Assembly: GCA_964498955.1 (NCBI GenBank) | Contig: CAZCIE010000002.1 | Coordinates: forward strand, 1-28,508 | Source: an uncultured Candidatus Saccharimonas sp. | GTDB taxonomy: Bacteria; Patescibacteriota; Saccharimonadia; Saccharimonadales; Saccharimonadaceae | Direction: 5' to 3' | DNA: 28,508 bases | In this document: piece after piece, positions 945 to 23,502 of the stretch | How the letters are laid out: the number at the start of each line of letters is the position of its first letter | Position numbering within the stretch: position 1 is the stretch's first letter | The notes under the pieces: generated by a model | Told to the model about the DNA's origin: nothing | What the model saw: the letters and a program-made list of their open reading frames with translations, nothing else | The model's database searches: none | Translations under genes and position numbers: made by a program

Positions 945-969
945 CAAAATAAAAAACTTAAAATACTAG

Positions 970-978
970 TGATATAAT
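970..978 (+). promoter_or_regulatory. Extended -10 promoter (TGATATAAT) for the 79-aa membrane protein
   Basis: Consensus TGnTATAAT, back-to-back with the MIP promoter. SD AAGGA at 991-995. Confidence 0.65.
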
Positions 979-1001
979 AAAATACATTGAAAGGACAAAA
1001 A

Positions 1002-1241
1002 ATGGCGTTATTTATTAAACAACAAGATGATCGGACAGAGTTACAAAATCGATTAGCGACAGAGTTGCAAGAAAGGGCTAGGCAGCGTGCAAAAGATACT
1101 GATATGCCAGATGGTGTTAGTGATTCTCAGTATATTAAGGGCACAAAACAAACAACGAGTTTGGCATGGGTTTGGGTAATAATAATAATTGTTGCTGCTG
1201 TCCTGGTAATTTGGCTAATATCAATTGGGGTGGCAAAATAA
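1002..1241 (+). CDS. Small hypothetical protein with C-terminal transmembrane helix (79 aa)
   Basis: ATG 1002 follows AAGGA. Helical charged N-terminus and hydrophobic tail LAWVWVIIIIVAAVLVIWLISIGV. Confidence 0.75.
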   Translation: MALFIKQQDDRTELQNRLATELQERARQRAKDTDMPDGVSDSQYIKGTKQTTSLAWVWVIIIIVAAVLVIWLISIGVAK

Positions 1242-1254
1242 CCATCATTTAGCG

Positions 1255-1260
1255 TATAAT
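1255..1260 (+). promoter_or_regulatory. -10 box for pheST
   Basis: TATAAT 11 nt upstream of the pheS ATG, with no SD. Confidence 0.55.
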
Positions 1261-1271
1261 ATAAAACAGTT

Positions 1272-2282
1272 ATGCAAAATATTGAAGATGTTCGAAGTGA
1301 CTTGATAAAGAAAATTAATGTTAGCGATAATCCTCGTGAACTATTAAAGTCGCCAGAATTAAAACAACTCTACGGGGCAATTACTACTTTGCCGATCGAA
1401 GATCGAGGCTCATACGGAAAGCAAATCAATGAACTAAAGATTGACTTGAATGTTTATATTGATAAAAGAGAGCAGGAGCTACAAGATTCTGAGATTGAAG
1501 CAATCGACATAACTGCGCCTTGGGATATTAATTCTGAGAAACCCGCGCTGTTGCCAGTTGAAAGCGGATCTTTGCACCCATTAATGACAGAACTCGAGAA
1601 CGTTATCGATATATTTACTAGAATGGGGTTTGAGGCAATTGAGTCAAGGCAGCTAGATGACGATGACCATATGTTTGGTACGCTAAATTTTCCAGACAAT
1701 CATCCAGCAAGGGACGGCTACGATACTTTTAGGACAGAGGAAGGCTTTATATCCCCAGCTCATACATCGACAATGCAAAACCGTATATTGAAAAGCGGCA
1801 AAGCAAAACTAGAAGCTGGCGGCCAAATTGCTGCCATTAGTTACGGCAGGGTATTTCGAAATGAGGATATTGATGCTACCCATGAACATACGTTTTATCA
1901 GTATGAAGGTGTTTTTGTTAGTTCAGACGCATCGCTTGGCCAGATGATAGGGACGTTGCGTAATTTTTTTGAATCTTATTACGGACAAAAAATATTAACC
2001 AAAACACAGCCGGCATATTTTCCATTTGTTGAACCAGGATTAGAATTTGTAATTGAAAAACCAGCAGTAATTGGCGGAAAACCAGGAGATTGGCTTGAGA
2101 TGCTGGGATGTGGTATGATCCATCCAAATGTTTTAAGCGCTGCGGGTATAGACCCAGCAAAATACCGAGGTTTTGCCTGGGGTGGTGGAATTGAACGATT
2201 AGTTATGTTGAAATATGGCATCGAGGACATCCGCAACTTTGAATCAGGGAAGCTTTCATTTATGAGGGAGTTTATATGCTAG
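1272..2282 (+). CDS. pheS: Phenylalanine-tRNA ligase alpha subunit
   Basis: SLHP, NFPDNHPARD, GRVFRNEDIDATH, YFPFVEPG, EMLGCGM and FAWGGGIERLVM class II aaRS motifs. Confidence 0.98.
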   Translation: MQNIEDVRSDLIKKINVSDNPRELLKSPELKQLYGAITTLPIEDRGSYGKQINELKIDLNVYIDKREQELQDSEIEAIDITAPWDINSEKPALLPVESGSLHPLMTELENVIDIFTRMGFEAIESRQLDDDDHMFGTLNFPDNHPARDGYDTFRTEEGFISPAHTSTMQNRILKSGKAKLEAGGQIAAISYGRVFRNEDIDATHEHTFYQYEGVFVSSDASLGQMIGTLRNFFESYYGQKILTKTQPAYFPFVEPGLEFVIEKPAVIGGKPGDWLEMLGCGMIHPNVLSAAGIDPAKYRGFAWGGGIERLVMLKYGIEDIRNFESGKLSFMREFIC

Positions 2283-4765
2283 TATCATTAAATTGGTTAA
2301 AGAAATTTGTTGATATTGACGTATCGGCCCAGCAGTTAAAAGTTTTAATTGGTTCACGATTGGTTGAAGTCGAAAATATTGTTGATATTGGTCAAAAGTA
2401 CAAGGACGTAGTTATAGTAAAAGTGATTGAATCTAGTAAAATGGAAGGTTCTGACCACTTAAGTGTAATAAAAATCGATGATAATGGCGTCGTCTCAGAC
2501 ATCGAACGAGACGAAAAAGACTTGGTCCAGGTTGTTTGTGGTGCACCAAACATGAGAGCAGGAATAACAGTCGCATGGCTACCTCCAAAATCGGTCGTGC
2601 CTGACACATACGGCACTGCCGACCCATTTGTATTAGACGCCAGGAAACTACGTGGAGTAATGAGCAATGGCATGATTGCTAGCGCAAAAGAGCTCGACAT
2701 ATCAGACGACAATGAAGGAATACTTGAGATTGATGAATCTGTGGGCGCAGGTGTATCATTTGCTAAACAGTATGAGCTGGATGACTATTTGTTTGATATC
2801 GAAAATAAATCATTAACCAGCCGGCCTGATTGTTTTGGTATCATAGGCTTTGCTCGAGAAGTATCGGCGATATTAGGAAAAAAATTTACAAATCCTGATT
2901 GGTTTTTAAACACAAACATACAAGACGTAGGTCAATCTCGTGACACTCCCATTAATGTGACTATCGAAGATGAGACTCTTTCTTCTCGCTATTTGGCAGT
3001 TGTCATGGACGGCATTTCGGTCTTGAAGCAGTCGACTTTAATTATTCAAACTTATTTATCGCGTATGGGCGTAAGGCCAATTAATGCAATTGTTGATGTA
3101 ACAAATTACTTAATGTTATTAACTGGTCAGCCGCTTCATGCTTTTGATTATGATAAATTGGTAAATCTATGCGGCGAGGTTATTAATATCCATGTACGTT
3201 TAGGGAAAGAAGGCGAAAAACTTGAACTTCTTGATGGAAAGACAATTGAACTTTCGACTGAGGATATCGTAATCTCAGCTGGTAAAAATGCGATAGCCCT
3301 AGCCGGAGCAATGGGTGGTTTAAATACTACAATTGACGAAAATACTAAAAGAATTGTCATTGAAAGTGCTTCATTTGACCTTTACCGTTTACGTGCGACT
3401 CAGATGAGGCATGGGATATTTAGTGAGGCTATAACACGATTTACAAAAGGTCAGACCGCTGGCTTAACGGCGCCGGTAATAGGACAGGCGACTCAAATGA
3501 TTTCAGAACTTACAGGTGCAAAATGTGCTAGCCCAATTGCTGAAGATTACCCGGTTGTCCAGTTACCAATTAAAATTGACCTTGACGTATCAAAGATTAA
3601 TACAGTTCTTGGTAGCAACTTTGAAAAGGATACAGTACAAAAAGTTCTTGAAAATGTAGGTTTTTCTATTACTCATAAAATTAGTGGACTAATGACGACA
3701 ACTGTGCCATATTTTAGAAGTGACGTTCATATCCTTGAGGATATTATTGAAGAGGTTGGACGTATTGCTGGCTTTGATAATATTAAACCAACGTTACCGG
3801 TTCGTGAATGCATTGGCGTTAAGCCAGACGATTTTGATATTTTTAGGTCAAATCTTCGAAGGACTTTAGCGAAAGCTGGTGCAAACGAAGTACTGTCGTA
3901 TAGTTTCGTGAATGCTGATAATATTAAAAAAGCAGGTCAGGATCTAACAAACTCTTATCGAATAATCAATTCAATTAGTCCTGATCTTCAATATTACAGA
4001 CAATCATTATCTCCGAATCTTTTGGGATTCGCATATTCAAATGTGAAACAAGGATACGACAACTTTGCATTATTCGAGATTAATAAAGTCCATCAAAAGG
4101 ATATTGGTTTAAATGATGAAAGTGTGCCAAATGAGATAGAATCGCTTGCTTTGGTAATTACAAATAAAAACCCAGGGTCTGGTGCTGCATATTACCGAGC
4201 AAAAAGATTACTTGACATGTTGTCCAAGACGGCTGCGGTCGACTTAGTATACGAGACAATAGAAGAGGGCTGCAATGACCCATCGGCAGTAATTTTTGAC
4301 CCAAATAGGTCGGCGAAAGTTATTAACAAATTAACCAATGCAATAGTTGGTTATGTAGGAGAGTATAAAAAATCTGTCATTAATGGGTTCAAGATTCCAG
4401 AATATAGTTCAGGTTTCGAAATAAATTCAAGGACATTGTTTGTGCCAACAAACAAGATAATTAGCTCATATTCACATATGAGTAAATATCCTGGCACGGA
4501 AAGAGATATGTGTTTTAAGGTAGCTGACGATATTTGCTATAATCAGGTCAATGATGCGATTTACCGAGTATTGTCAAAGACAAATTACAAAACAGAGGTT
4601 CTACCGGTCGATATTTATAAGCAGCTTGAAACAACTACGAAAAATATTACGGTTCGTGTAAAAATTACGGCGTTTGACCATACACTAACCAGAGATGAAA
4701 TTGCTGAAGTTATAGATAATGTCTGCAAGTCAGTAATATCAGCAACAAATGCCGTTATTGTTTGA
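2276..4765 (+). CDS. pheT: Phenylalanine-tRNA ligase beta subunit
   Basis: MLVSLNWLK start, VVCGAPN tRNA-binding OB fold, SRPDCFGIIGFARE, B3/4 domain, DILEEVGR-like motif (DIIEEVGR) and C-terminal YPGTERD ferredoxin-like domain. Overlaps pheS. Confidence 0.98.
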   Translation: MLVSLNWLKKFVDIDVSAQQLKVLIGSRLVEVENIVDIGQKYKDVVIVKVIESSKMEGSDHLSVIKIDDNGVVSDIERDEKDLVQVVCGAPNMRAGITVAWLPPKSVVPDTYGTADPFVLDARKLRGVMSNGMIASAKELDISDDNEGILEIDESVGAGVSFAKQYELDDYLFDIENKSLTSRPDCFGIIGFAREVSAILGKKFTNPDWFLNTNIQDVGQSRDTPINVTIEDETLSSRYLAVVMDGISVLKQSTLIIQTYLSRMGVRPINAIVDVTNYLMLLTGQPLHAFDYDKLVNLCGEVINIHVRLGKEGEKLELLDGKTIELSTEDIVISAGKNAIALAGAMGGLNTTIDENTKRIVIESASFDLYRLRATQMRHGIFSEAITRFTKGQTAGLTAPVIGQATQMISELTGAKCASPIAEDYPVVQLPIKIDLDVSKINTVLGSNFEKDTVQKVLENVGFSITHKISGLMTTTVPYFRSDVHILEDIIEEVGRIAGFDNIKPTLPVRECIGVKPDDFDIFRSNLRRTLAKAGANEVLSYSFVNADNIKKAGQDLTNSYRIINSISPDLQYYRQSLSPNLLGFAYSNVKQGYDNFALFEINKVHQKDIGLNDESVPNEIESLALVITNKNPGSGAAYYRAKRLLDMLSKTAAVDLVYETIEEGCNDPSAVIFDPNRSAKVINKLTNAIVGYVGEYKKSVINGFKIPEYSSGFEINSRTLFVPTNKIISSYSHMSKYPGTERDMCFKVADDICYNQVNDAIYRVLSKTNYKTEVLPVDIYKQLETTTKNITVRVKITAFDHTLTRDEIAEVIDNVCKSVISATNAVIV

Positions 4766-15115: not shown

Positions 15116-15134
15116 CCCAGGTATGTACAAGTAG

Positions 15135-15140
15135 TATAAT
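15135..15140 (+). promoter_or_regulatory. -10 box for uvrB (probably leaderless)
   Basis: TATAAT 7 nt before ATG 15148, with no SD. Confidence 0.65.
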
Positions 15141-15147
15141 AGTTTAG

Positions 15148-17118
15148 ATGGACCAAAAATTCGTACTAGAATCCGACTATGAGCCAACTGGCGATCAGCC
15201 AACAGCTATTGCCCAATTAATAGCTGGTTTAAATGCGGGCGAACGCGAGCAGACACTGTTGGGCGTAACTGGGTCTGGTAAAACTTTCACGATGGCCAAT
15301 ATTATTGTTGATCGGCAAGTACCGACATTGGTATTGGTGCATAACAAGACCTTGGCAGCCCAACTGTACAGCGAGTTTAAATCATATTTTCCAAATAACG
15401 AAGTTCATTATTTTGTTAGCTATTTTGACTATTATCAGCCCGAAGCCTATATGGCTAGCAGTGACACATATATTGAAAAAGACAGTAAGATTAATGATGA
15501 GATTGATAAGTTGCGCCATGCAGCGACGACTGCGCTACTTACTCGGCGCGACACGATTATTGTTGCCAGTGTTAGTTGTATCTATGGCATCGGGTCACCT
15601 GATGATTATTCGGACATGTCTATTCACGTCAAAAAAGGCGAACGACGTTTGCAAGATAAATTTGTCCGATTATTAACGGACATCCAATATCATCGAAATG
15701 ATATAGATTTTCACCGAGGATCTTTCAGGGTCCGTGGTGATGTAGTTGATGTTTTTCCGGCCGGCAGTGACGTTGCGTATAAAATTGAATTTTATGGTGA
15801 CATAGTCGAACGATTAACGCGAATTGACCCATTGACTGGCGAGATTCTGGCCGAACCAAGTGAAATTACGATTTTTCCATCTAGTCATTATGTCACGCCC
15901 AAAGAAAAACTTGAACATGCGTTGGTTGGCATTAAAAAAGAGTTTGACGAGCGGCTGCAATATTTTGAAAAGAACGATAAGTTTTTAGAAGCGCAGCGTT
16001 TGGCGCAACGTACGAAATTTGATATCGAAATGATGGAAGAAACAGGATTTGTCAAAGGAATCGAAAACTATAGTCGATATTTAACAGATCGAGAGCCTGG
16101 CGAACAACCTGCAACATTATTGGACTATTTTCCAGACGACTTTTTGTTATTGGTTGATGAAAGCCACATGTCACTGCCGCAAGTTCGCGGAATGTACAAT
16201 GGTGATCGAGCGCGCAAGGAAGTATTGGTGGAATATGGTTTTCGTTTGCCGTCAGCATTGGACAATCGACCACTTAAGTTTGAAGAATTTTATAACCATA
16301 TTAACCAAGTTATTTATGTTTCGGCCACACCTGGCGAATTTGAATTGTCGCATAGTCCTGCTCCTGCTCAGCAAGTCATTCGACCAACTGGTCTAGTTGA
16401 TCCAGAAATTATTATTCGTCCAACTAAAAACCAGATTGATGATCTGATTGCTGAAATTCGTGAACGAGTTACAAAAGGTCAAAGAGTTCTGGTGACAACA
16501 TTGACCAAAAGAATGGCCGAAGACCTGGCAGCCTATCTGCAAGATTTACAAATCAAAACTGCCTACATTCACAGTGAAGTCGATACGATGGAGCGCGGTG
16601 ATATTTTAAAGGATTTACGAATGGGTGTATATGACGTACTGGTTGGCATCAACTTGCTACGTGAAGGCTTGGATTTACCAGAAGTTAGCATGGTTGCGAT
16701 ACTCGATGCAGATAAAGAAGGCTTTTTGCGCAGTGCCGGTGCGCTGATCCAGACAATTGGCCGCGCATCGCGCCACGTTGAAGGGAAAGTGTATATGTAC
16801 GCTGATAGGATGACTGATTCGATGAAGCAAGCGATTGATGAAACAAATCGTCGCCGAGAAATTCAGATTAAATACAATCAAGATAATAACATCACGCCTG
16901 TAGGAATTGATAAAGAGATTGGCGAGGGTCTGCGGGCAATCGTGCCGAAAAAGCCTGGCGATGAGCATAAATTGAATCTAAATAAGATTCCGAAGGATGA
17001 ATATCCATCATTAATCAAAGAATTGACAAGTCAAATGTTACTTGCCAGTGCCAATTTGCAGTTTGAACAAGCCGCTGAACTTCGTGATCAAATTGCTGCA
17101 ATTCAAGATAAACTTTAA
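15148..17118 (+). CDS. uvrB: Excinuclease ABC subunit B
   Basis: GVTGSGKT, HNKTLAAQLY, FVSYFDYYQPEAY beta-hairpin, DESH, GINLLREGLD, QTIGRASR and a C-terminal UVR domain. Confidence 0.99.
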   Translation: MDQKFVLESDYEPTGDQPTAIAQLIAGLNAGEREQTLLGVTGSGKTFTMANIIVDRQVPTLVLVHNKTLAAQLYSEFKSYFPNNEVHYFVSYFDYYQPEAYMASSDTYIEKDSKINDEIDKLRHAATTALLTRRDTIIVASVSCIYGIGSPDDYSDMSIHVKKGERRLQDKFVRLLTDIQYHRNDIDFHRGSFRVRGDVVDVFPAGSDVAYKIEFYGDIVERLTRIDPLTGEILAEPSEITIFPSSHYVTPKEKLEHALVGIKKEFDERLQYFEKNDKFLEAQRLAQRTKFDIEMMEETGFVKGIENYSRYLTDREPGEQPATLLDYFPDDFLLLVDESHMSLPQVRGMYNGDRARKEVLVEYGFRLPSALDNRPLKFEEFYNHINQVIYVSATPGEFELSHSPAPAQQVIRPTGLVDPEIIIRPTKNQIDDLIAEIRERVTKGQRVLVTTLTKRMAEDLAAYLQDLQIKTAYIHSEVDTMERGDILKDLRMGVYDVLVGINLLREGLDLPEVSMVAILDADKEGFLRSAGALIQTIGRASRHVEGKVYMYADRMTDSMKQAIDETNRRREIQIKYNQDNNITPVGIDKEIGEGLRAIVPKKPGDEHKLNLNKIPKDEYPSLIKELTSQMLLASANLQFEQAAELRDQIAAIQDKL

Positions 17119-17126
17119 CATTATGC

Positions 17127-17155
17127 TTGCGTTATCATCAAAAGTGTGCTATTAT
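17127..17155 (+). promoter_or_regulatory. Sigma70 promoter upstream of the structured leader / DEAD-box helicase
   Basis: TTGCGT (17127-17132), 17 nt, TATTAT (17150-17155) preceded by an extended-10 TG. Confidence 0.65.
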
Positions 17156-17161
17156 TAAGAT

Positions 17162-17463
17162 ATTGCATTCGAAATGCTAGGGCCTCTTTCAAAGATGAGC
17201 GCACCCTTTACTCTAAGGTAATATTTAGGCGCTACCACCGAATTAATCTCTTATTTTCCAAAGTGCATATAGTCATCGCAAAACAAAACATATGCTTTTC
17301 GCTGTGCTCCAGCGGCTAGTAAAGTCCTAACCTCACTCAGTATATCTACGGATATCCTTCAATCGGTTTGACCATTACTAGCTTGCTGTTTCACTACCGA
17401 AAAGACACATGTTTTGCCTTGTGATGACTATAAATATCTACCTAACAGAAAGGCTATTTTATA
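17162..17463 (+). ncRNA. Putative structured RNA (5' leader of the DEAD-box helicase, or an independent ncRNA)
   Basis: Long-range stem 17268-17301 / 17398-17432, inner stem 17315-17322 / 17375-17382, and hairpin ATATC-TACG-GATAT (17342-17355). Confidence 0.65.
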
Positions 17464-18675
17464 ATGGCATATCAACAAAGAAGTGGCGGACGCCCAGGTG
17501 GCAGCCGTCCAAGTTTTAACAGAGGCCGCAGTGGCGGTTCTCGTCGAGGTCCTGTTAAAAAATATATCAATCCAGCTAAGTTTATTAATCATGCAACTGC
17601 AAAGATTGATGAAGTTCCTTATGTATCCGAAAATACATTTGCCGACTTTGGTTTTAGTGAGAAATTAAAAAATAACATTGTCAAAAAAGGCTATGAAAAG
17701 ACTACGTCTATCCAAGACCAAGCAATTAAGTCAATTATGGAAGGCAAAGATCTAATTGGTCTTGCTAACACCGGTACTGGTAAGACGGCAGCCTTTTTAT
17801 TGCCGATTATTGACCATCAAATAGGTGAAAACCTGCGGCCAAGTGTCCTAATTATTGCTCCAACTCGCGAACTTGCTCAGCAAATTGATGACGAGTTTCG
17901 TTCGTTTGCTTTTGGCTTAGATTTATATTCGTCACTCGTCGTCGGTGGTGTACCTGCTGATCGACAAATCCGTGAGTTAAAACGTCGCCCACATTTTATA
18001 ATTGGAACACCGGGACGATTAAAGGATATGATGACTCGTCGATATATTGATTTGCGAAACATTAATACATTAGTATTAGACGAAGCTGACCGAATGCTAG
18101 ATATGGGCTTTTTGCCTGATATTCGCGCCATTGTTGGTCAAACTCCTGAAAACAGGCAAACGCTACTTTTTAGCGCTACTACGACCCCAGAGATTATGGG
18201 AATTGTAAGCAATTTTACCAAAGATCCTGTCACTGTATCTGTGCGAACTAGCGAAACAAATGAGCATATTGAACAAGATGTTATCGAAGCTCGTGATAAA
18301 GCTCATAAAATTGAGCTATTAACCGAGATGTTAAGCGACAGCCAAAAATACGATAAAGTTTTGGTTTTTGGTGAAACAAAATTTGGCGTTCAGCGATTGT
18401 CAGATCATTTAGATAATTCTGGTATTAGCTCGATCGCGATTCACGGCAATAAAAACCAATCTCAACGACAACGTGCTTTAAAGCAATTTAAAGACGGCAA
18501 TGTGCGAGTAATGGTTGCAACAGATGTTGCTGCAAGGGGCCTAGATATTCCAAACGTATCTCACGTTATCAACTTTGATACTCCACAATGTTACGAAGAT
18601 TATATTCACCGAATTGGCCGTACTGGCCGTGCTGGTGCCGCTGGTCACGCCCACACATTTATTGACAGACGATAA
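17464..18675 (+). CDS. DEAD-box ATP-dependent RNA helicase
   Basis: Q motif, TGTGKT, PTRELAQQ, TPGRL, DEAD, SAT, ATDVAARGLD and HRIGRTGR. SD AGAAAGG. Confidence 0.97.
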   Translation: MAYQQRSGGRPGGSRPSFNRGRSGGSRRGPVKKYINPAKFINHATAKIDEVPYVSENTFADFGFSEKLKNNIVKKGYEKTTSIQDQAIKSIMEGKDLIGLANTGTGKTAAFLLPIIDHQIGENLRPSVLIIAPTRELAQQIDDEFRSFAFGLDLYSSLVVGGVPADRQIRELKRRPHFIIGTPGRLKDMMTRRYIDLRNINTLVLDEADRMLDMGFLPDIRAIVGQTPENRQTLLFSATTTPEIMGIVSNFTKDPVTVSVRTSETNEHIEQDVIEARDKAHKIELLTEMLSDSQKYDKVLVFGETKFGVQRLSDHLDNSGISSIAIHGNKNQSQRQRALKQFKDGNVRVMVATDVAARGLDIPNVSHVINFDTPQCYEDYIHRIGRTGRAGAAGHAHTFIDRR

Positions 18676-18685
18676 AATATTTATT

Positions 18686-18714
18686 AACAAGAGGCTATAA
18701 CAACCTCTTGTTTT
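18686..18714 (+). terminator. Intrinsic terminator after the DEAD-box helicase
   Basis: AACAAGAGG (18686-18694) / CCTCTTGTT (18704-18712) inverted repeat ending in TTTT. Confidence 0.75.
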
Positions 18715-18718
18715 GATG

Positions 18719-18724
18719 TATAAT
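18719..18724 (+). promoter_or_regulatory. -10 box for the gat operon (probably leaderless)
   Basis: TATAAT 8 nt before gatC ATG 18733, with no SD. Confidence 0.6.
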
Positions 18725-18732
18725 ATCTGCAT

Positions 18733-19023
18733 ATGACACAAATAACCCGCGAGGATGTGCTGCATCTGGCACAGTTATCTAGCTTGAAGCTAACAGATGA
18801 AGAAATTTCTAGATTGCAAAATGACATTACCAATATTTTGGGATATGTTGATCTGTTGAAAAGTTTGAATACAGAAGGTGTTGAGCCAACTTATCAAGTA
18901 ACAGGCCTATCGAATGTATGGCGAGAAGATAAGATTATTGATTATGGCCTATCGCGTAATGATTTGCTAAGTCTTGCACCCGAAATTGCAGATAACTCGG
19001 TGAAGGTTCCGAAGGTATTATAA
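18733..19023 (+). CDS. gatC: Asp/Glu-tRNA amidotransferase subunit C
   Basis: ITREDVLHLAQLSSL, ILGYVDLL, TEGVEPT, WRED and VPKVL. TAATG coupling to gatA. Confidence 0.95.
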   Translation: MTQITREDVLHLAQLSSLKLTDEEISRLQNDITNILGYVDLLKSLNTEGVEPTYQVTGLSNVWREDKIIDYGLSRNDLLSLAPEIADNSVKVPKVL

Positions 19024-23166: not shown

Positions 23167-23170
23167 CCTA

Positions 23171-23200
23171 TTGCTTTTTCTATACAGCTTGTGGTATAAT
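23171..23200 (+). promoter_or_regulatory. Sigma70 promoter for the DUF948-like/YtxH pair
   Basis: TTGCTT (23171-23176), 18 nt, TATAAT (23195-23200) with TG extension. Confidence 0.6.
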
Positions 23201-23243
23201 AAAAATATAAGGTACGTAATCAAATAAAAAAGAAAAGGAAAAT

Positions 23244-23498
23244 ATGAACTTTGCAGCAGAAATACTAGTAATAATTTTATCAATCTTTTTAGCGATATTT
23301 TTAATACTGGCAATTATATTGTCAGCTTATCTGATATCGTTAACACGCCAAATTCGTCGCATAACGAATTCGGCTGAACGAACAGTCGACAATATCGGTT
23401 CAGTTGTAAGTGACGTTTCAAAAATCACAACTCCGATGTTTATTGCAGACATGGTTAGTAAATTTGTTAATAAAATGAAGAAAGAAAAAAAGGAGTAA
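23244..23498 (+). CDS. Small membrane protein, DUF948/YtxG-like (84 aa)
   Basis: N-terminal TM helix followed by an amphipathic coiled coil. SD AAAGGA. Adjacent to a YtxH-like gene, the usual pairing. Confidence 0.7.
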   Translation: MNFAAEILVIILSIFLAIFLILAIILSAYLISLTRQIRRITNSAERTVDNIGSVVSDVSKITTPMFIADMVSKFVNKMKKEKKE

Positions 23499-23502
23499 AT
23501 AT

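Follow-up and report, generated by a model that had tools for sequence, protein, structure and literature searches.

The window, which is the whole 28,508-nt stretch of DNA analyzed here, is carried by a 592-kb genome with a completeness of 76%. The region of interest lies between uvrB and a gene for a DEAD-box RNA helicase. The features of this locus are listed below by position.

15148-17118, + strand: uvrB, the upstream neighbor (Pfam UvrB_inter, UvrB and UVR)
17119-17463: intergenic gap of 345 nt between UvrB and the DEAD-box helicase
17127-17155, + strand: promoter read from the sequence, with the -35 box TTGCGT (17127-17132), a 17-nt spacer and the extended -10 box TGcTATTAT (17147-17155)
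17162-17269, + strand: conserved leader RNA of the DEAD-box gene, a rod of about 108 nt (models R2 and R3, 103-110 bits)
17268-17271, no strand assigned: left TATA, a probable 4-bp target-site duplication (TATA is found at both element ends)
17272-17428, + strand: body of a MITE-like palindromic element, 157 bp, with the inverted ends GTCATCGCAAAACAAAAC and GTTTTGCCTTGTGATGAC (model R1, 157 bits)
17331-17366: apex of the element, made up of CCUCACUCA, the hairpin at 17342-17355 and CCUUCAAUCGG
17429-17432, no strand assigned: right TATA, a probable 4-bp target-site duplication like the left copy
17433-17466, + strand: spacer, SD AGAAAGG (17447-17453) and start codon ATG (17464-17466)
17464-18675, + strand: DEAD-box RNA helicase gene, 403 aa (Pfam DEAD 1.7e-48, Helicase_C 1.4e-33)
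18686-18714, + strand: terminator-like inverted repeat AACAAGAGG / CCTCTTGTT followed by Ts, read from the sequence just past the helicase stop

The helicase, which has an Arg/Gly-rich N-terminus, was the sole canonical DEAD-box protein found in a scan of its own assembly. The layout of its gene contrasts with that of uvrB and gatC, in which a TATAAT box lies 7-8 nt before the ATG with no SD (15134-15150 and 18719-18735, respectively), as is expected of a leaderless layout. The helicase gene has its own promoter, a long leader, an SD and a terminator-like repeat, and this combination fits post-transcriptional control of the helicase. The promoter was part of the original prediction, with a TSS at about 17162, and this was upheld. 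Both boxes were read from the sequence, and they recur at 19 congeneric loci and in a further 11 genera. A simple promoter scanner did not call the helicase promoter. The inverted repeat behind the helicase stop was also not called by a scanner because its loop is 9 nt long; with this repeat, the helicase gene would be monocistronic. The SD block, GAAAGGCTATT..ATGGC, is kept in all relatives. The adjacency of uvrB and the leader is not universal, and several congeners have a different gene upstream of the leader.

The gap in front of the helicase gene had been described as 345 nt long and as the only long gap in the window. The length was correct, and two more gaps of similar size were seen at 946-1271 (326 nt) and 23167-23502 (336 nt) with crude ORF calling. 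Neither of these two gaps contained an ORF of at least 90 aa, a tRNA or an Rfam match, and a tRNA gene search of the entire window found none.

A conserved leader RNA of the helicase gene

The first part of the 5' UTR, 17162-17269, showed 73-87% identity across the genus by BLAST. Each of the 18 sequences tested from the genus, which were the window and 17 congeners, contained the leader. With model R2, one copy per genome was found, both in the window's genus and in 11 further genera of its family, and none in approximately 147 genomes from other families. A second-round leader model yielded no additional members. In each of the 11 other genera, the leader is located 30-66 nt upstream of the orthologous helicase ORF and begins directly after a TGnTATAAT-type -10 box. 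No Rfam family was matched by the leader, either at the gathering cut-offs or at E <= 10.

The same rod was folded in each species. Its closing helix is UUGCA/UGCAA, and the inner helices are GAUGAAAU/GUUUUC, AGGG/CUCU, UUC/GAA and AGCGC/GCGCU, with two conserved internal loops, CCUCUUUCAAAGA and CACCGAA. The apical hairpin (about 17208-17221) has sequences that are unrelated between species with pairing always kept, and two genera have no hairpin at this position. In an alignment of 29 sequences fitted to the model, 88.8% of the cells were paired, compared to 36-60% with slid partners. Two-sided changes were seen at 10 pairs in this model-fitted alignment, compared to 5.4 ± 1.5 after shuffling, and 0-1 of 500 shuffles were equal. 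The covariation is modest, and inside the genus alone there was almost none. A local 5' hairpin at 17165-17177 in place of the long-range closing helices is just as compatible with the data, and the two could be alternative states of the leader.

Two other possible functions of the leader were rejected. A conserved leader peptide would require a small ORF, and the one in the window's leader is broken in relatives, which have no conserved small ORF. Pairing of the leader sequence CCUCUUUC with the SD (GAAAGG) was examined in partition-function folds of 17 relatives, and no consistent partner of the SD was seen.

A second variable hairpin was observed downstream of the leader core in other genera (L089, L090, L091, L092, L093, L094 and L096). 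These same seven loci have a conserved CUGCAUACAGCUAU block between the second hairpin and the SD, and their full leader extends beyond the length of the model, which was built on sequences of the window's genus.

An undescribed cis-element had been proposed for the region, with a comparison of the upstream regions of orthologous helicases as one of the checks. This comparison divided the proposal: the leader, which spans both of the "smaller hairpins" of the original prediction, was conserved and retains the status of an undescribed element, and the large hairpin downstream of it was absent from the 19 congeners. Positions 17162-17269 are very probably an ancestral, clade-specific leader RNA that occurs in front of the helicase gene only. 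Judging from its conservation and position, the leader most likely controls helicase expression after transcription initiation. Autoregulation by the helicase, temperature-dependent refolding or both would be candidate mechanisms by analogy with crhR-type systems.

The large hairpin and its absence from related loci

Next to the leader, positions 17262-17438 had a minimum-free-energy fold of -68.1 kcal/mol. Dinucleotide shuffles gave -31.0 ± 3.5, so that the hairpin lies far below the shuffled energies (z -10.7; 0 of 200 as good), and the shuffle control named in the original prediction was passed. All of the helix pairings named there were recovered in this fold; the apical ATATC-UACG-GATAT hairpin was present, as was the SD at 17447-17453. 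The description of the region as one multi-branch RNA has to be replaced by two separate domains, the 108-nt leader rod and an unbranched 165-nt rod. On the + strand, this second rod is nearly continuous from 17268 to 17432 and has no large central bubble. For the hairpin, Rfam scans with the gathering cut-offs and with E <= 10 gave nothing beyond miRNA and snoRNA matches at the level of chance. The suggested Rfam check for 6S RNA, riboswitches and thermometers thus returned no family for either domain.

The arms at the ends of the rod are 32 nt long and 81% complementary, that is, they form terminal inverted repeats. The junctions read gtgca-TATA-GTCATC...GATGAC-TATA-aatatc. As TATA is itself palindromic, a 2-bp TA duplication is also possible for the window copy. 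By analogy with the variable 4-bp duplications of subfamily C (described below), the invariant TATA would be the duplicated target, and the body would then span 17272-17428. Neither a promoter, including an outward one, nor a terminator was seen at the element ends with a simple scanner.

Comparison with related genomes gave a clear picture of where the hairpin begins and ends. When the whole gap was searched by BLAST against 36 congeneric genomes, only its first 150 nt and last 20 nt were matched. A MAFFT alignment of 19 congeneric loci contained the same promoter, leader, SD and start codon with a clean 165-nt gap at 17268-17432, and none of these 19 genomes had the 165-nt hairpin in the leader region. 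BLAST of the window's own genome revealed no second copy of the hairpin. The insertion point falls in the spacer that separates leader and SD, the only part of the UTR whose length differs from one relative to another. Two congeners, G023 and G002 (L011:1520-1705 and L012:1520-1704), have a small hairpin unrelated to the element, AACCTGGCA..TGGCAGGTT, in the same spacer, suggesting that insertions are tolerated here.

The filled site was also found in public metagenome contigs from wastewater and digesters (runs X1, X4 and X6). Bioreactor run X4 contained both a filled contig and a related contig without the element, i.e., an empty site. DNA contigs from two runs belonging to two different studies span the retained insertion.

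Metatranscriptome contigs covered 17140-17289 (the leader and the left junction) and 17398-17670 (the right junction and the coding sequence); these are assembled contigs only, possibly derived from DNA, and the middle of the hairpin is uncovered. One of the RNA contigs begins 22 nt upstream of the predicted TSS. No contig over uvrB was found in the same run. The contigs are weakly suggestive of a transcript that starts at the helicase promoter and runs through the element. In run X8 (record 15), a metatranscriptome contig matched leader positions 17171-17206 and then continued into the variable hairpin of another species, so the leaders of congeners are in the RNA library as well.

These data suggest a course of events in which the element inserted 14 nt ahead of the SD, in the variable spacer that follows the leader. 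There it would probably be co-transcribed with the helicase mRNA and fold on itself. Self-folding joins the two ends of the element, and the distance between leader and SD would thus be little changed, which would explain why the insertion was tolerated. The effect on helicase expression was probably neutral or mildly modulating. The element, as a long imperfect duplex, could be a target of RNase III cleavage or could stabilize the mRNA.

A superfamily of palindromic elements in Saccharimonadales

Eight genomes, belonging to at least seven further families of the order, contain full-length relatives of 165-169 nt. These relatives have TATAG...CTATA ends and arms like TATAGCCATCCCAAAACAAAAC in common, and their apex resembles CCTCACTCA-cc-GTATCTACGGATAT-gc-TTCACTCGG. 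In the family alignment (A1), compensatory two-sided changes were seen in 33 of 52 predicted pairs. A covariance model, R1, was used for all superfamily counts. The highest number was obtained for genome G047 (0.8 Mb), with 132 matches among the 150 candidates scored, both strands counted; further matches were found in G234 (38), G183 (29), G284 (11) and G054 (5). A 120-kb sample of G047 contained 43 distinct loci, or about one per 3 kb, most of them intergenic, and elements made up as much as ~5% of the sampled DNA. The end motif occurred 109 times in G047, compared to once for a reversed control, and many contigs of this genome break within a copy of the element.

Several subfamilies are present in G047, which differ in their ends and have the same apex plan and a rod of 157-168 nt. 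Of 14 copies of subfamily C, a sister of the window's subfamily, 9 lie between perfect 4-bp direct repeats (TTTA, TATA, TAAA, TAGA and TGTA are found), and most of the remaining copies have flanks that are one base off. Since they differ from copy to copy, these flanking repeats are, as read from the sequences, true target-site duplications. The flanks of the window's subfamily are always TATA, which is consistent with a target duplication and is not decisive. One copy, at L080:1975-2136 (G047 contig 7), is contained entirely within an open frame of 1024 aa that runs on the other strand (965-4039); it may be an in-frame insertion in a gene, similar to those of Rickettsia palindromic elements (RPE).

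The superfamily was detected in 51 of 151 sampled Saccharimonadales genomes. Among other genomes of the window's genus, 9 of 40 carry it at unrelated sites, with 58-63% identity to the window copy. Single copies in 16 other genomes were not syntenic, and a phylum-wide sample of other orders had the superfamily in only one genome. Phage carriage was considered and rejected, as the apex motif was absent from viral contigs. Transfer between phyla was likewise considered for a "Candidatus Limnocylindria bacterium" (DATHJH01), whose contigs carry the element at L044:6768-6992 and L048:3338-3503. These coordinates correspond to contigs 36 and 10 of G183, a genome of the window's order, so the public name looks mislabelled and transfer was rejected. 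In the library searched, no relevant paper on MITEs of Saccharibacteria or Patescibacteria was found, and none that describes this family.

Some traits of the superfamily are unlike those of a textbook MITE. A comparison of 36 diverse members showed a conserved apex, arms that differ from genome to genome and a length that stays at 157-169 nt. The conserved apex consists of two pyrimidine-rich loops, CUCnCUCA and CUUCnCUC, flanking a covarying 5-6-bp stem, GUAnC...GnUAC. The apical UACG loop is not kept (UAAU, UAAG, UAUG and others occur). All 69 elements that were folded on both strands were more stable as the complement of the window's + orientation, with a mean strand difference of ~17-18 kcal/mol (46 elements); for the window's hairpin, the - strand had -78.6 kcal/mol (z -11.0). 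The G-U pair and the UNCG loop had been taken to favor the + strand, and this argument fails because the - strand folds better and the UACG loop is not found family-wide. On the opposite strand, the loops are purine-rich GAGUGA motifs in which tandem G.A and G.U pairs are possible. The better-folding strand had no bias with respect to neighboring genes in G047 (11 same, 14 opposite). A conserved apex, variable ends and a better-folding strand hint at a single-stranded intermediate or a role as RNA.

The search for a mobilizing enzyme included several candidates. Matches to the transposase families PF01609, PF13358, PF13546 and PF13612 were absent from the high-copy genomes G047, G063 and G476. 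The IS5/IS982-like elements of G183 and G234 were rejected as autonomous partners, since their ends are unrelated and score no better than shuffles. The list of G047 end motifs contained no long-range inverted pairs, and the search of these genomes did not reveal a related autonomous IS that encodes a transposase and shares the ends of the element. MAGs often miss repeated IS copies; an autonomous copy may therefore simply be missing from the assemblies. Distant RAYT-like Y1_Tnp ORFs were present in all five genomes tested, including the window's own genome:

L104:709-1326 (contig 61) and contig 84:1538-1762: Y1-like ORFs of the window's own genome, 205-208 aa (Y1_Tnp 41 bits)

Against NF047646 (REP-associated tyrosine transposase), the own-genome ORF scored 41 bits, compared to a cut-off of 80. 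A linkage to RAYT was rejected, as the 1.5-kb surroundings of six Y1-like genes were free of R1 matches, and the number of Y1-like genes does not follow the copy number of the element.

Origin of the hairpin and comparison with known systems

Taken together, the 302-nt 5' UTR of the helicase gene very likely consists of two unrelated parts, an ancestral leader and a lineage-specific MITE-like insertion. Of the characteristics of a MITE, dispersed copies, terminal inverted repeats, a variable target duplication (in subfamily C), and filled and empty sites were observed; an autonomous IS to go with the element was not found in the genomes searched. The position of the hairpin in a 5' UTR, its end 14 nt before the SD, its high stability and the presence of both junctions in RNA-library contigs are what one would expect of a dedicated cis-regulatory RNA of the helicase gene, either autoregulatory or cold-responsive. 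This is highly improbable, as 19 congeneric leaders in front of an otherwise same helicase gene do not have the hairpin and copies of the same element are found next to unrelated genes elsewhere, in numbers from tens to hundreds. With the hallmarks of a transposon in addition, the large hairpin is not a conserved helicase element. The least credible of the explanations considered is a separate gene for a small RNA, for example 6S RNA, which had been suggested for a rod with a central bubble. With its length of about 165 nt and its internal loops, the rod is loosely similar to 6S RNA in size and shape; the hairpin lacks a large central bubble as well as its own promoter and terminator, it matched neither RF00013 nor another Rfam family even at E <= 10, and it is not conserved in relatives and is multi-copy elsewhere.

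The explanation as a MITE-like insertion does not exclude that the inserted copy has since been co-opted. In that case, the mRNA duplex would be cut by RNase III or would block decay from the 5' end, setting the helicase level or uncoupling the leader from the coding part. An RNase III gene is present in the genome, and Correia-type processing of the inserted hairpin is therefore possible by analogy (PMC2649163); the RNase III substrate suggested in the original prediction is still plausible for this hairpin. The insertion has also been kept in DNA contigs of two runs from two studies, but this retention across samples may reflect one clonal lineage, and we consider co-option rather unlikely.

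A further question is whether the element moves as a cut-and-paste MITE. It could instead be mobile as single-stranded DNA or RNA moved by an enzyme that reads structure, either REPIN-like (RAYT/Y1) or apex-recognising. The conserved apex with variable arms and constant length, the same more stable strand in all members folded, the lack of a DDE transposase among the findings from high-copy genomes and the distant Y1_Tnp/RAYT-like ORFs in every genome tested all point in this direction. The variable 4-bp duplications, however, point to staggered double-strand cuts, which are not made by Y1 enzymes. The Y1 version is further weakened by Y1-like genes that do not adjoin elements, are unrelated in number to element copies and score 41 bits against a RAYT cut-off of 80. 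We consider mobility of this kind slightly less probable still than co-option. In a more general form, which we rate about as low as co-option, the superfamily would consist of mobile elements defined by their structure, and an as yet unrecognised enzyme would read the conserved apex of a single strand in the form of ssDNA or RNA. Such an enzyme might read CUCnCUCA, the GUAnC stem with its tetraloop and CUUCnCUC, or GAGUGA-type loops with tandem G.A pairs on the opposite strand, and would cut at a fixed distance from the apex, ~80 nt along the stem. The constant length, the free arm sequences, the strand asymmetry and the lack of a known transposase in genomes with more than 100 copies would all be explained in this way.

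On the reading as an ancestral leader with a MITE-like insertion, the most striking RNA structure in the window is a hitch-hiking transposon and not a regulator, and a tempting misreading is corrected. The very small genomes of host-dependent Saccharibacteria can be heavily colonised by palindromic mini-elements, and such elements can occupy the 5' UTRs of essential-looking genes. To our knowledge, almost no RNA regulators are known in this phylum. The compact leader RNA, which has no Rfam match, is a tractable candidate for feedback by the helicase or for temperature control. What is new here is the position of the element in a conserved helicase leader, and the leader motif.

Small palindromic elements have spread in other bacteria as well. 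The bcr1-type repeats of the Bacillus cereus group and the enterobacterial ERIC/IRU elements are ~125-155 bp long, have short AT-rich target duplications and form stable rods. G-U pairs make one strand of these repeats fold better, which has been read as a sign of structure at the RNA level. The Saccharimonadales element differs from them in sequence and host, and it has no strand bias relative to genes. RPE are also selfish palindromes that spread in the very small genome of a host-dependent bacterium, and at least one G047 copy is, like them, inside a long ORF. Unlike RPE, the window copy is in a 5' UTR and not in a coding sequence, and there is no sequence relationship. REP/REPIN sequences (RAYT, Y1) are similarly abundant intergenic hairpin repeats, and distant RAYT-like genes are present in these genomes. 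In contrast to REPINs, the element has target duplications, is not linked to RAYT-like genes, is about twice as long and has no GTAG head motif that we could see.

The Correia elements of Neisseria (CREE) are similar in more respects. Both they and the Saccharimonadales element are small (~100-160 bp) non-coding palindromes with inverted ends that start with TATAG and with TA-containing targets; they are dispersed over intergenic regions, are frequently transcribed along with genes and form long hairpins in mRNA. Correia hairpins in transcripts bind RNase III, are cleaved or protected, and alter the expression of neighboring genes (PMC2649163). The two have no sequence relationship, and in the Saccharimonadales element the ends differ between genomes and the apex is conserved. 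Furthermore, CREE duplicate TA, whereas a sister subfamily here has a 4-bp duplication, and the ends of the window copy showed no outward promoter.

The leader has a different set of counterparts. In cyanobacteria, crhR is an example of an autoregulated or temperature-regulated DEAD-box helicase gene (bioRxiv 10.1101/2021.03.26.437152), and plant helicase genes carry a "DEAD" RNA structure (bioRxiv 10.64898/2026.01.23.701338). In both, as at the locus described here, a helicase gene has a conserved structured RNA in its own transcript, which fits feedback by the helicase or by temperature. The Saccharimonadales leader has no sequence or structural relationship to either of them, and its proposed role in regulation follows from its conservation and its position in front of the helicase gene.
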